A stretch of DNA of 49,388 nucleotides, from positions 1 through 49,388 of the forward strand of contig JAZDOR010000010.1 of NCBI GenBank assembly GCA_043798435.1, in the 5' to 3' direction. This document shows, piece after piece, positions 41,968 through 46,684 of this stretch (within the stretch, counting starts at the first letter, position 1; each line of letters opens with the position of its first letter). The notes beneath the pieces are model-generated. The model did not search any database. It was not told the DNA's origin and worked only from the letters and a program-made list of their open reading frames with translations. Both the position numbers and the translations under genes were made by a program. Origin of the DNA: a bacterium. GTDB lineage: Bacteria; UBA9089; UBA9088; JAGUXG01.

Positions 41968-42044
41968 GATATTTCTTGCTTCTGATGTTACTATTTAAAA
42001 ATGTTATATTTAATTACTAAATAAAAATGTTATATTTTTGTGAT

Positions 42045-42128
42045 ACTGTGAATAGTGTGAGCAACTCCAAAGGAGTTGGTCGAGCGATGTGGGAAGTTTA
42101 CTTTCCACAGAGCGTCACTATTCACAGT
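42045..42128 (+). ncRNA. Candidate structured RNA (three-way junction), strand inferred from G-U pairs
   Basis: P1 is actgtgaatagtg/cactattcacagt (13 bp). P2 is caactcc-aaa-ggagttg (7 bp). P3 is tgtgggaag-ttta-ctttccaca (9 bp, one G-U on the plus strand only). Confidence 0.35.
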
Positions 42129-42464
42129 TAATAGATTTGTGGTAACCTTTTAATTAAATCTATCTAAGGAGGTTGCCACAATGGAAAAAGAAAGTATATT
42201 GAAGTTAAAATATAACATTTATCGTAGTGCACCATAACATTCGTTTTTAGGAGTTCATCTGTTCTGTTCGTAGTAATCACATTTATGCGGTTGTGTTTAT
42301 ATTCAACTTGCTAAAGTAAATCACTATGAAAGGGTACACAAATTCAAATGGAGTGATGTAGCAGTAATTAACTATAACATTTAACGTAGTAACAACATCA
42401 GCAGATAATTTTGAAGCTATAAGCCATAAGCTAATTCATAAATTTCCTTTTCATTTCGCGTGTT

Positions 42465-43265
42465 TTAGCGTGTTTCGTAGTCTCCTTTTGCAGCGACCAG
42501 GACTTCTTCCTGTATCTTCTGAAGCTGGGATGAAATGGTAGCATCTATTATCCCAAACCCTGTCTGAACCTTGCATCCACCCTGTTCAATGGAAGGGTCT
42601 TCTCTAATATCTATCCTTTTGCCTCCTGAACTCTTCAAAATCCTTTCCTTCCATTCTGAAGCCACCTCAAAATCAGCAAGATTTACTAAGACCGTTATAC
42701 TTTCCTCGGAAAGCCCCCTTTTTATCGCCATCTCTATGTTGGACAAGACAACCTTTTTATTGCCTTTTATCTCCTCCTTTATTATCTTTTCAGCAATCAT
42801 TATGGCCAGCCCAACTACAACCTCCGCCTCTGCCTTCTTTGTTGCCTCTTCATATACCTTGGATAATGAGGAGAGCGTATTAGTAAAACCAGTAATAAGC
42901 CTGTTCGCCTCTATCTCTCCCTTTCTCTTTCCATCCGCCCTTCCCTCATCAAACCCTTTTTTGAAGGCTGAATCAGTTATCTCGGAAACCTTCTTCTTTG
43001 CCTCTTCTTCTGCCTTCCTGATTATATCTTCACACCTCTTTTCCGCTTCCTTTCTTACATAGCCTTCTACATCAGAAAGCACCCTGCTCCTTTCTTCTAT
43101 CTGATTATTTATCTCTAAAAGCCCTTGTTCTGCTACCCGTATCTTATTTTCAAGCCTCTCAATCAGATTCCGTCCTTCTCCTAAACCAGAAAATGCCTTT
43201 GGGTCTATGACTACATCCGAACTTAGAACAGGCTGCTTATAAACGCTATTCAATGATTGACTCAC
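42465..43265 (-). CDS. fliH: Flagellar assembly protein FliH-like
   Basis: Lies downstream of fliG. Long charged coiled coil, then KKGFDEGRADGKRKG and LAIMIAEKIIKEEI. GTG start inside repeat unit A. Confidence 0.65.
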   Translation of the reverse strand: MSQSLNSVYKQPVLSSDVVIDPKAFSGLGEGRNLIERLENKIRVAEQGLLEINNQIEERSRVLSDVEGYVRKEAEKRCEDIIRKAEEEAKKKVSEITDSAFKKGFDEGRADGKRKGEIEANRLITGFTNTLSSLSKVYEEATKKAEAEVVVGLAIMIAEKIIKEEIKGNKKVVLSNIEMAIKRGLSEESITVLVNLADFEVASEWKERILKSSGGKRIDIREDPSIEQGGCKVQTGFGIIDATISSQLQKIQEEVLVAAKGDYETR

Positions 43266-43682
43266 CTCCTTTCCAGTAGCGACTAATCATAATCTCGTCC
43301 TGTTCCTCTAATTGCCTAACCACAACTATTATCTTCTGTTGAGCCTCTTCTACTTCGGAGAGTCTCATCGGTCCAAGGCAGGAAATCTCCTTATTCAATG
43401 ATTGACTCACCCCCTTTGCCACCCCGACTAATCATAATCTCACCCTGCTCTTCTAATTGTCGCACTACAACTATTATCTTCTGTTGAGCCTCTTCTACTT
43501 CGGAGAGTCTCATCGGTCCAAGGCAGGAAATCTCCTTATTCAATGATTGACTCACCCCCTTTTCCACCCCGACTGATCATAATCTCACCCTGCTCCTCTA
43601 ATTGCCTAACCACAACTATTATCTTCTGTTGAGCCTCTTCTACCTCGGAGAGTCTCATCGGTCCAAGATAGGAAATCTCCTC
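43246..43682. repeat. Tandem triplication (3 x 145 bp) of the fliG 3-prime end / fliH start junction
   Basis: The anchor attcaatgattgactcac occurs at 43248, 43393 and 43538. The units are more than 90% identical by eye. Confidence 0.95.
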
Positions 43683-44552
43683 TTTGAGCATCTCAGCCGC
43701 CCTTTTGGGCATATTCTTATAGATTAAGCCACTTATCGTCCCGGTAACACTCTTCATTGCCCTGGCTAAGTCCTTTGTGTCAACCTCCCTGAGAATCCTT
43801 TGCAAAGCCCTATCATCAAGCTTTGTCAGGTCATCAAAGGTAAAGAGCCTCTTTCTTACCTCTTCTGCCAGGTCTGGCTCTGTCTCGCTTAAGGCATCAA
43901 CTATGGTTTTTTCTGTCTCCCTGTCAACTGCATGGAGTATATTCACTAAAGACTCAACCCCTCCTACAGCGACAGTCTTCGTGGTTACAACCTCCTTCTC
44001 AAACTTTTCTCTCAGAGAACTTTCTACTGAGCTGACAAACTCTGGCGAGACATTCTTCATTCCGGCAAGCCTCTTGGCTACATCACCCCTTTTATCTTCA
44101 GGAATATTAAGAAGGACATTTGAGGCTTTTTGTGGGTCCAAGTAACTCAGGATAACAGCTATTGTTTGAGGATGTTCCTTTCCCAAGAAGTTTGCCAGAT
44201 AAAATACATCTGCCTTCTTCATAAAATCAAAGGGTCGCATCTTCAAGGTTTCTATGGAGCGATTTATTATCTCCTCTGCCCGGGCGGGACCTAATGCCCT
44301 TCCCAATACCTCTCTGGCATACTCTATCCCACCCTTACTGATAAATTCCTGAGCCATAAGAAGCTCCTTTAGCTCTGTAATTATCTGTTGGCTCTCCTCT
44401 CGCTCAAGCTTTGAAATTCTGGTTATCTCTAAGGTGAGCTGGTCAACCTCTTCCTCATTCAGGTACTTAAATATACCCGCAGATATTTCTGTTCCCATAG
44501 CCACCAAGAGCCTGGCTGCTTTCTGTGGTCCTGTTAAAGTTACCTTAGCCAT
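43536..44552 (-). CDS. fliG: Flagellar motor switch protein FliG
   Basis: LTGPQKAARLLVAMG, MRPFDF and EVDTKDLARAMK are present, with C-terminal LGPMRLSEVEEAQQKII. Confidence 0.92.
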   Translation of the reverse strand: MAKVTLTGPQKAARLLVAMGTEISAGIFKYLNEEEVDQLTLEITRISKLEREESQQIITELKELLMAQEFISKGGIEYAREVLGRALGPARAEEIINRSIETLKMRPFDFMKKADVFYLANFLGKEHPQTIAVILSYLDPQKASNVLLNIPEDKRGDVAKRLAGMKNVSPEFVSSVESSLREKFEKEVVTTKTVAVGGVESLVNILHAVDRETEKTIVDALSETEPDLAEEVRKRLFTFDDLTKLDDRALQRILREVDTKDLARAMKSVTGTISGLIYKNMPKRAAEMLKEEISYLGPMRLSEVEEAQQKIIVVVRQLEEQGEIMISRGGKGGESIIE

Positions 44553-44565
44553 CTTATTTTTCCTC

Positions 44566-44776
44566 GTAAGTGTTTAGGTAGTATAAGATAAGGAGAAATG
44601 GGGAAAGAGGAGAATTGAAGAAATAGGACGCAGATTAACGCTGATTTACAAGATAGGAATTAAATAAGAATCTGCGCTAATCCTGAAAAATCCTGAAAAT
44701 CTGCGTTCTAATTCTTCCCCATCTTCCCCTTTTCTCCTTTCTTACACATATTAAAATATAGCCGTTGAACGGTTAC
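44566..44776. repeat. 211-bp nested palindromic element (GTAAGTGTTTAGGT ... GTTGAACGGTTAC)
   Basis: The outer arms are at 44566-44579 and 44762-44776. The middle arms are agtataagataaggagaaatggggaaagagg and cttccccatcttccccttttctcctttcttacac. The inner part uses CGCAGAT/ATCTGCG words. Confidence 0.8.
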
Positions 44777-44949
44777 CTTTCTTCTTCTATCTCCATAAAG
44801 ATAGACCGTATCCTTTCATCTGGAAAGGTATCCGCCTCATTAGCCAATATCCTCTTTTCATCTTCAGTCAACCACCTGATTACCTCTCTCTGCTCTTCTT
44901 TATCCAGCAGACTCAAGGCTAAAAGCGATTTTTTTGCACCTTTCTTCAT
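44773..44949 (-). CDS. Small hypothetical protein in a repeat-bounded cassette between fliF and fliG
   Basis: 58 aa from ATG 44949 (the track ORF starts at a GTG inside the repeat arm). No family recognised. Confidence 0.35.
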   Translation of the reverse strand: MKKGAKKSLLALSLLDKEEQREVIRWLTEDEKRILANEADTFPDERIRSIFMEIEEER

Positions 44950-44965
44950 TTCGCATAATAATTTT

Positions 44966-45037
44966 GACACAGATTAACACTGATTTCCACTGATAAAATT
45001 TAAAAATTATCTGTGTTCATCTGTGTAAATCAGTGTC
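44966..45037. repeat. Inverted copy of the element at 23-94
   Basis: gacacagattaacactgatttccactgataa ... ttatctgtgttcatctgtgtaaatcagtgtc. The arms are 28-30/31 identical to the arms of 23-94 in reverse orientation. Confidence 0.85.
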
Positions 45038-45070: not shown

Positions 45071-46684
45071 TTACCCCTCTTCAGCCAGCCATCCCCTGAT
45101 AATATTGGCAACAAGTGCAGGCTTCCTTCTTGCTGTCTGCAAGGCAGCCATCTCCTCCTCTGAAAGCACACCCTCTGTAGCAAGCTGACTGGTTATGGGA
45201 ATCTCCGAGTCTGTCATCTCCCTGTCTAATCTTTCTGCCCCAGCCTTTCTTTTCTCATCTTCTTTCTTTTTGGCTGCCATTACCGCAGAAAAGATGAAGA
45301 TTCCAAGCAAAAGCAATAGTCCGCCGCCCACTCCAACAGTAGCAATGGTCGTTACCAATTCTTTGCGAGCAACCACTTTTTCTCTCTCTTCTTCAAGCCA
45401 CTCCTGGGTTCTGTCAAACTGGACATTCTCAACCTCAACAATATATTCCCTTTCTATATATTCCCTGCCCTTTTCAGCACCTATTGCCGCCCAGATCATC
45501 TTTCGGTATTTTTCCATCTCATCATCTGTCCTTGGATGATAAACAGGCTTTCCTTTCTCTTTCTTTATCTTTCCCTTTTCATCCGTCTCATAGCTTCCAT
45601 CTATCAAGGCTGCAACTGATATCTTAGAGATAGCTGGGGCTTTGGCGATGTTCATCTCTTCTTTATCCACATAGTAGTTAATCCTGCTCTCATTTTTATT
45701 ATAGTCAACAGGTCCACCTGCCTTAGCCATCTCTTTATAGCCTGGAATCTGACTCTCAACGCCTGGAGCACCCTCTGGCTTTGCACCCTCTCCCTTAAAG
45801 CTCTCCTGAACCTTCTCTTCACTTATCTTCAGTTGTTCAAAGCCCGGGGTTGAGTACTTCTCTTTTTTAATCTGTTGTCTGTCAAAGTCCATTTCATACT
45901 TGACAATAACCTCAATCTTATCCTGACCAAGGGCTTTACCTAATTTTTCTCTTATTTTTTTCTCTAATCTCTTTGCCTCATCCCTCTGAAGGGTTACCTG
46001 TTTTGCACTCATAGCCTCTTCTGTCGCTTCGTCTAAATCTTCAGAGAGCATATTCCCTCTGTTATCAATCAGGGTAACATTCTCAGGCTTCAAGCCTTCT
46101 ACAGCATAAGAGACAAGGTTGACTATTCCTTTTACCTGATTTTTTTCTAAGGTAGCAAAGGGGGACATTGTCAGTTTGATAGAACAGGTGACAGGCTTTT
46201 CTTCCTCTATAAACAGCTCTTTTTTTGGAAGGACAAGGAGAACCCTGGCATCTTCTATTCCTTCAATTGAGGCAATCGTTCTGGCGAGCTCACCCTGTAA
46301 GGCACGGAGGTAGTTTATCCTCCGCTCATAATCCGTCATAGTTATCTTGGTAGCATCAAATAGCTCCCATCCCTTGATACCACCTGATGGAGCGAGCTTT
46401 TCTGAGGCAAGTCTAATTCTCAGTCTATCACGGCTGGAAATAGGAACCTTGATGGTTGTTCCAGAAATTTTATATGGTTGTTTCCAATCATCCAGCTTAG
46501 TGGCGATCCTTCCTGCTTCCTGTGGGTCAATATTGGTATAAAGGTCGGAATATTCTGCCTGGCTCACAAATTTTACCAAAAGAAACAGGGCAACAACTGT
46601 AGCTACTCCACAGCCAATAACAGCTACCCTTTGACCCATTGTCCATCTTCCCCACAAAGCCTTTATCTGGTCTAAAAATCCCAT
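45071..46684 (-). CDS. fliF: Flagellar M-ring protein FliF
   Basis: N-terminal TM segment, YSDLY..IDPQEAGRIATKLD, RRINYLRALQGELARTI, a second TM near the C-terminus, and a FliG-binding tail. Confidence 0.92.
   Translation of the reverse strand: MGFLDQIKALWGRWTMGQRVAVIGCGVATVVALFLLVKFVSQAEYSDLYTNIDPQEAGRIATKLDDWKQPYKISGTTIKVPISSRDRLRIRLASEKLAPSGGIKGWELFDATKITMTDYERRINYLRALQGELARTIASIEGIEDARVLLVLPKKELFIEEEKPVTCSIKLTMSPFATLEKNQVKGIVNLVSYAVEGLKPENVTLIDNRGNMLSEDLDEATEEAMSAKQVTLQRDEAKRLEKKIREKLGKALGQDKIEVIVKYEMDFDRQQIKKEKYSTPGFEQLKISEEKVQESFKGEGAKPEGAPGVESQIPGYKEMAKAGGPVDYNKNESRINYYVDKEEMNIAKAPAISKISVAALIDGSYETDEKGKIKKEKGKPVYHPRTDDEMEKYRKMIWAAIGAEKGREYIEREYIVEVENVQFDRTQEWLEEEREKVVARKELVTTIATVGVGGGLLLLLGIFIFSAVMAAKKKEDEKRKAGAERLDREMTDSEIPITSQLATEGVLSEEEMAALQTARRKPALVANIIRGWLAEEG

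Follow-up and report, generated by a model that had tools for sequence, protein, structure and literature searches.

The boundary between fliG and fliH in the window, the whole 49,388-nucleotide stretch of DNA that was analysed, consists of three head-to-tail copies of a 145-nt unit. The array is best explained as a tolerated and heritable junction minisatellite of variable copy number, which would behave like the MIRU-VNTR loci of mycobacteria and would not be a part of the flagellar motor. The probability of this reading is estimated at about 0.62. The host is an uncultured groundwater bacterium. Its metagenome-assembled genome has a size of 2.2 Mb in 233 contigs and is 84% complete, and a close FliG in NCBI carries the name Candidatus Desantisbacteria.

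Architecture of the fliG–fliH junction

All of the genes discussed here lie on the minus strand in the order fliF, a small ORF, fliG, two short ORFs, and fliH. The fliF gene (M-ring; 45071–46684), which lies upstream in the operon, is an ORF of 537 aa, and its orthologues are located 5′ of fliG in the sister species G001 and G002. The small conserved ORF between fliF and fliG (44773–44970; 58–65 aa) has no Pfam match. It is kept at the same place in G001 (L003 2519–2695) and G002 (L004 2507–2686). Therefore, it is regarded as a small flagellar-operon gene of the whole lineage rather than a recent cassette. An exact look-up of the window FliG and of the 58-aa ORF matched no record. The fliG gene (43536–44552) is intact with 338 aa, contains the Pfam domains FliG_N, FliG_M, and FliG_C, and can be aligned over its full length with T. 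maritima FliG (1LKV). The fliH gene (42465–43253; Pfam FliH) is also intact. It encodes 262 aa from TTG at 43253, which is the form used in the public annotation (P0023), or 266 aa from GTG at 43265, and the agreement with its orthologue in the independent contig L189 is 98%. After fliH, pilM and not fliI comes across a gap (41968–42464), and the same adjacency is found in L189. No fliI orthologue was found in the 84%-complete assembly, where flhA is intact.

A single array at 43247–43681 was detected by TRF with a period of 145, 3.0 copies, 91% matches, and a score of 731. The anchor ATTCAATGATTGACTCAC matches exactly at 43248, 43393, and 43538. Both results bear out the triplication of the fliG-stop/fliH-start junction that the preliminary description had reported. 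The three 145-nt units (43248–43682) abut with zero intervening bases, and their identities are 92.4% for A–B, 89.7% for A–C, and 89.7% for B–C. Each unit is composed of the last 48 codons of FliG and the overlapping fliH start, and its limits are FliG codon 291 (GAG GAG ATT...) on one side and the T of the fliG stop codon on the other. Unit A (43538–43682) carries FliG codons 291–338, and the ribosome-binding site and start of fliH appear in it for the first time. Unit B (43393–43537) is an extra copy with a clustered patch of changes that are all synonymous (GTA GTG CGA .. GAA). Unit C (43248–43392) is the last copy and leads into the real fliH, and its G to D and GG to YW replacements are private to the window strain. 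The TAA stop of fliG (43538–43536) is rebuilt by the first repeat junction, GAAT/AAGGAG, where the slash marks the unit boundary, and the native TAG closes the last unit. The fliH start region reads AAAGG(G/A)GGTGAGTCAATCATTG in every unit. The ribosome-binding site in this region is of the GGTGA type, the TTG precedes the end of the fliG stop by 8 nt, and a GTG in the same frame lies another 12 nt upstream.

The period of 145 equals 1 mod 3 and the fliH start is in the +1 frame relative to fliG. Therefore, the frame opened by each extra fliH-type start coincides with that of FliG in the following unit. It comprises 50 codons, and its stop ends 8 nt past the next TTG (TTGAATAA / TTGAATAG). The stop/start overlaps form a chain, at the end of which the stop of relay ORF 2 reaches 8 nt past the TTG of fliH. 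Relay ORF 1 (43391–43543) encodes 50 aa from TTG at 43543 and ends with TAA, with alternative in-frame GTG starts at 43555 and 43567. Relay ORF 2 (43246–43398) encodes 50 aa from TTG at 43398 and ends with TAG, with alternative GTG starts at 43410 and 43422. These TTG-started versions are the ones in the public annotation (P0016 and P0001, respectively). The preliminary description had derived two extra FliG-tail ORFs of 54 codons from the same frame logic (43391–43555 and 43246–43410), and these GTG-started frames translate as it stated. The same open 50-codon frame and the same 8-nt stop/start overlap are found in all five extra units of the window, L189, and L190.

Searches for other signals at the array were negative. 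The 145-nt unit has no second locus in the whole 2.2-Mb assembly. Neither promoter nor terminator signals were found within the array, and its 501-nt region folds no better than shuffled sequences (z = –0.83). No microhomology is visible at the duplication endpoints.

This anatomy suggests how the array could be tolerated. It would have originated from a tandem duplication of the 145-nt segment reaching from FliG codon 291 into the fliG stop codon. Because the stop of fliG and the start of fliH are both part of this segment, fliG ends in the first unit and fliH begins in the last one, and both genes stay intact. The native hand-over geometry of fliG and fliH is reproduced by each extra unit. 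Ribosomes might be handed from fliG to relay ORF 1, then to relay ORF 2, and finally to fliH. Alternatively, fresh subunits may enter at the copied ribosome-binding site and translate relay ORF 1 onward. In either case the expression of fliH would be preserved, and the array would be of low cost and nearly neutral. The earlier proposal that the array could affect the translational coupling of fliG and fliH fits this anatomy.

Reality of the array and its occurrence in other samples

The array was confirmed to be real and not an assembly stutter; an artefact is unlikely. In 28 pairs, contig ends share an overlap of exactly 141 nt, which identifies the assembly as MEGAHIT output with k=141 at the last step. 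Contig C30 shows a 141-nt overlap with itself and may be either a circle or a repeat. Between the two unit junctions, identity extends over at most 96 nt. Since k exceeds this length, every 141-mer crossing a junction holds unit-specific variants on at least one side. Therefore, the path from A through B to C is spelled by the k-mers and is not an arbitrary loop.

The 90% protein cluster of the 50-aa ORF includes two members from other assemblies, which represent the same species. The first, L189 (ENA contig ERZ27247128 k141_1326121, 7.6 kb), carries three units. Its order of fliG, array, fliH, pilM, a four-helix-bundle gene, and a porin-like gene is the same as in the window, and the two strains differ by a dS of 0.06–0.07 in fliG and fliH. 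The second, L190 (ENA contig ERR2191545 k127_217580), carries two units. The difference between copies (QGEIMISRGGKGG vs QDEIMISRYWKGG), from which the preliminary description had argued against a trivial stutter, is real, and the argument is now backed by these independent assemblies. Unit B of the window differs from unit 2 of L189 at only 3 sites, but from its own neighbours in the window at 8 sites (unit A) and 15 sites (unit C). The middle units of both strains also have the derived patch GTA GTG CGA ... GAA (GTAGTGCGA..GAA) in common. These position-matched units indicate that the array is older than the strain split and was inherited. Unit 2 of L190 resembles L189 unit 2 at its 5′ end and L189 unit 3 in its body, as expected if unequal exchange had removed one unit. 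The Logan contig L195 contains only one unit, an A/C hybrid, but this count is ambiguous since an assembly at k=31 would collapse the array by itself. The JGI contig L194 starts at unit position 16, as if the assembler had broken at the repeat. Taken along the strains, unequal recombination may have kept or lost units to give 3, 3, 2, and perhaps 1 copies.

A comparison of the junction in related genomes had been recommended at the outset. The junction is single in the sister species G001 and G002 and in the Hainich aquifer contig L193. Scans of metagenomes and genomes for related loci returned only relatives with a single junction or unrelated phyla.

Some other rearrangements around fliG were observed. 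In G001, a different tandem duplication of 1359 nt extends from the fliG tail through fliH into fliI (L022, JASEHO010000074.1, 1654–4336). Its unit contains the last ~180 nt of fliG, the whole fliH, and the first ~420 nt of fliI, and the copies are 2 SNPs apart. It yields a second intact fliH and a truncated ORF for the N-terminal 141 aa of FliI. In two assemblies that agree with each other (L106 3514–6014 and L024 2858–5358; JAHJSK01, Ga0180009), a fliG of 89% identity from a related organism is followed directly by unrelated DNA without fliH. An opposite-strand ORF comes there first, and then an ORF resembling an archaeal-type SAM synthetase. In an unrelated 156-kb ENA contig (L188 3001–3246), a lone FliG_C ORF of 81 aa lies by an IS1595 transposase and flagellin genes, and it is probably a remnant left by insertion.

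Known systems and the duplication habit of the genome

The closest parallel is offered by the MIRU-VNTR loci of mycobacteria. As described after Supply et al. (1997) in PMC3184786 and PMC12548453, these are head-to-tail units of tens to about 100 nt between operon genes. A short ORF in each unit overlaps the stop and start of its neighbours and keeps translational coupling, and the copy number varies between strains. According to the same two accounts, MIRUs are dispersed over about 40–50 loci, have their own consensus, and appear to insert at start codons. Short ORFs that serve only for ribosome delivery have been reviewed, with MIRUs as a natural case (PMC12548453; MIRUs also in PMC3184786). 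The present array is similar in three respects. Its 3 x 145 nt lie head to tail between the co-directional fliG body and fliH, its 50-codon unit ORFs overlap by 8 nt at stop and start in the window, L189, and L190, and its copy number differs between strains (3 in the window, 3 in L189, and 2 in L190, next to the single hybrid of L195). On the other hand, its 145-nt unit is made of the flanking genes' own sequence and occurs at one locus only. Therefore, the array would behave as a MIRU does without belonging to the MIRU family.

The array can also be compared with other kinds of duplication. Tandem duplication and amplification with unequal crossing-over between copies belongs to general bacterial genetics. 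The identical junctions, the changes by one unit, and the hybrid units of L190 and L195 are in line with such ordinary amplification. However, the fliG–fliH copies differ from a recent amplification in being old and diverged (dS 0.36–0.47) and in lying within a segment that spares both genes. The 3′ ends of genes are also duplicated by elements integrating there, such as e14 in E. coli icd, and a second gene-tail copy that differs mainly at synonymous sites is similar to that case. Integration of this type was rejected since there is no element between the copies and no integrase, and the junctions are identical and strictly periodic. A diversity-generating retroelement shares repeats of ~100–150 nt at a gene 3′ end and clustered differences, and an Avd-like four-helix-bundle gene lies 3 kb away. 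It was excluded: the whole assembly gave zero RVT_1 matches for a reverse transcriptase, and adenine sites account for 5/11 differences (A vs B) or 6/15 (A vs C) at best. A literature search on tandem duplication of fliG/fliH found nothing relevant.

The assembly as a whole contains 111 tandem arrays with a period of at least 50 nt. The period is divisible by 3 in 76 of them, and these lie inside long ORFs. About 3–5 of the other 35 break a frame that collapsing would restore, and the rest are intergenic or at gene ends. Such a small number of frame-breaking arrays is the mark of genuine duplications that have passed through selection. By remainder, the 35 non-triplet arrays are divided into 23 of 2 mod 3 and 12 of 1 mod 3. 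Several of the arrays repeat the theme of the fliG–fliH junction. In contig C10 (11593–11827), 77 nt x3 spans an ATGA stop/start overlap with relay ORFs of 26 codons. In C161 (9836–10043), C181 (10657–10834), and C195 (1092–1236), the period is 2 mod 3 and the frames opened by the additional starts close with ATGA at the true start. The flhB gene on contig C50 has a 135-nt duplication in its 5′ region and an 88-nt tandem duplication of its 3′ end including the stop (1696–1918, 2812–2977). Further tail duplications are present in genes whose products we take to resemble TatC and a radical-SAM enzyme. The fliG–fliH array would then be no isolated case, since gene-boundary duplications are numerous in this genome. 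Short tandem duplications would arise in it unusually often, and the harmful ones would have been removed by selection.

This background bears on the possibility that the array is itself an adaptation. The number of relay units could tune the amount of FliH made per FliG, so that the array would be a heritable and reversible translational rheostat kept by selection. The natural copy numbers of 3, 3, 2, and possibly 1 agree with it, as do the open frame and the exact 8-nt overlap in every extra unit, the persistence of the array across the strain split, and the recognised mechanism of ribosome-delivering short ORFs (PMC12548453). However, this layout is automatic whenever a stop/start overlap is duplicated with a period of 1 mod 3. 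In addition, similar boundary duplications at many unrelated genes point to a mutational habit with a filter rather than a fliH-specific adaptation. The rheostat is therefore considered improbable. A broader proposal extends it to the junction minisatellites of fliG/fliH, flhB, C10, C161, C181, and C195 together, which would all be kept as heritable and reversible dials on ribosome flow; in a weaker variant, the conserved helix peptides of the FliG tail would themselves act on the motor. This proposal is held to be a little less probable still. If it is true, each added relay ORF would shift the FliG:FliH ratio and unequal crossing-over would be a tuning device at the population level.

Divergence of the copies and fate of the relay peptides

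The preferred reading of a tolerated minisatellite has to account for the way in which the copies differ. Between the paralogous units, dS is 0.36–0.47 and dN/dS is 0.05–0.14. The divergence is as deep as that against the sister species G001 (dS 0.32 for unit A and 0.43 for the whole fliG). Such a low dN/dS alone would suggest selection at the protein level, but three results argue against it.

The extra copies have changed differently from the true tail since the strain split. Between the window and L189, all 4 changes in unit A, the true tail, are synonymous. In contrast, the four extra units show 5 synonymous and 5–6 non-synonymous changes. The latter are Y to C in both extra units of the window, E to K in L189 unit 2, and G to D and GG to YW in unit C of the window. 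The dN/dS of the extra units since the split is roughly 0.3–0.5, compared with 0.02 for fliG overall. Judged from these substitutions, the extra copies are under relaxed constraint.

The differences are also distributed in patches. Five of the six derived changes of unit B fall inside 16 nt, the private changes of unit C fall inside 37 nt, and units B and C do not differ at all over their first 71 nt. At unit sites 108 and 120, only states already present in other units are reshuffled. Such a distribution is typical of patchwise conversion or exchange with alleles already filtered by selection, and not of independent mutations filtered in place. For the CGCTACTGG patch of unit C, a compensated pair of frameshifts is no more parsimonious than substitutions. 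The deep and mostly synonymous divergence of the units would thus come from gene conversion or exchange with functional fliG alleles rather than from selection on a peptide. A donor sequence for conversion from outside alleles was not found. A stronger ribosome-binding site, GGAGG, restricted to the copies before the real fliH was also considered as a feature and dropped, as GGGGG precedes fliH in L189, L190, L193, and L195.

The third result is a control within the same genome. The tail of proA is tandemly duplicated on contig C220 (3637–3926; 146 nt x2) with a dS of 0.52 and a dN/dS of 0.08. Its copy 2 lacks any start codon that is preceded by a ribosome-binding site and is probably untranslated. 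Since a tail copy without a start signal is equally biased to synonymous changes, the bias is no evidence of function. As a separate observation, the detached copy 2 of proA keeps the canonical motif GISTQKLHARGPMGL and the copy joined to the gene reads GISDHQLHARGPMGL.

Some features of the extra units could still reflect constraint. Over all lineages, their ratio of synonymous to non-synonymous changes is about 13:6 by codon and about 7:5 when clusters are counted as single events. This is more synonymous change than the neutral prediction, and some constraint could be responsible. With about a dozen events in all, the absence of stops and frameshifts from the five extra units is not significant. 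The array has survived a strain split of dS 0.06, and its units differ from each other by a dS of 0.36–0.47. In a neutral repeat this would be unexpected, except where the copies already differed at the outset or had received sequence by conversion from alleles outside the array.

The preliminary description had further proposed that free C-terminal peptides of FliG interfere with or modulate contacts of MotA, FliH, or FliM. No support was obtained for this part. Several facts can be cited for the idea that the 50-aa products have a role as small proteins, with an influence on the motor or on the export apparatus. Each has a ribosome-binding site and a start copied from fliH, both are predicted by gene callers, the helix LSEVEEAQQKIIVVVRQLEE is conserved in all assemblies, and the inter-unit dN/dS is low as given above. 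However, the radical changes since the split (GG to YW, G to D, Y to C, and E to K) all fell in the extra units and none in the true tail, the synonymous bias sits in one 16-nt patch that resembles a single conversion event, and the start-less proA copy has the same bias. The products themselves are also incomplete. They match only the last 46 positions of Pfam FliG_C (63–108 of 108), and the complete C-terminal domain of FliG (PF01706) with its torque helix is absent from them. In the alignment to 1LKV, the unit begins after most of the torque helix, and presumably 2 of the 5 charged residues of that helix are left, as judged from the E. coli FliG and this alignment. The AlphaFold model of the 50-aa product contains one helix (residues 13–32) with loose ends and nothing else, and this lone helix normally packs inside the FliG_C domain. 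The peptides are missing from the sister species. A function of the peptides is thus quite unlikely, and they would be by-products rather than motor parts.

It is very unlikely that the array is a store of alternative FliG C-termini, in which recombination between units swaps the end of the real gene. The A/C hybrid in L195 and the B/C hybrid in unit 2 of L190 imply that units do exchange. But A, B, and unit C of L189 encode the same tail and only unit C of the window differs, so almost no diversity is stored, and L195 comes from a k=31 assembly that alone would collapse the array. Least credible of all is an artefact in which variants from different strains, belonging either to one junction or to a genuine duplication, were threaded into an array: the fragmentation of the genome into 233 contigs and the lack of any match to the junction word CAATCATTGAATAAGGAGATTTCC among JGI metagenome contigs would allow it, but it is already largely refuted by a k of 141 above the shared 96 nt, which ties each junction to unit-specific variants, and by two independent assemblies from other projects that reproduce the array with positionally matching units.

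The tolerated minisatellite has some consequences beyond this locus. A low dN/dS among duplicated gene tails should not be taken as evidence that the extra copies are functional. The array adds no new part to the flagellar motor. It demonstrates in independent natural samples that the stop/start overlap of two essential genes of the flagellum can undergo head-to-tail duplication and be passed on over a long period with neither gene broken. The strains also provide natural variants with 1, 2, or 3 relay ORFs, which could be used directly to measure the coupling of termination and reinitiation across short ORFs.
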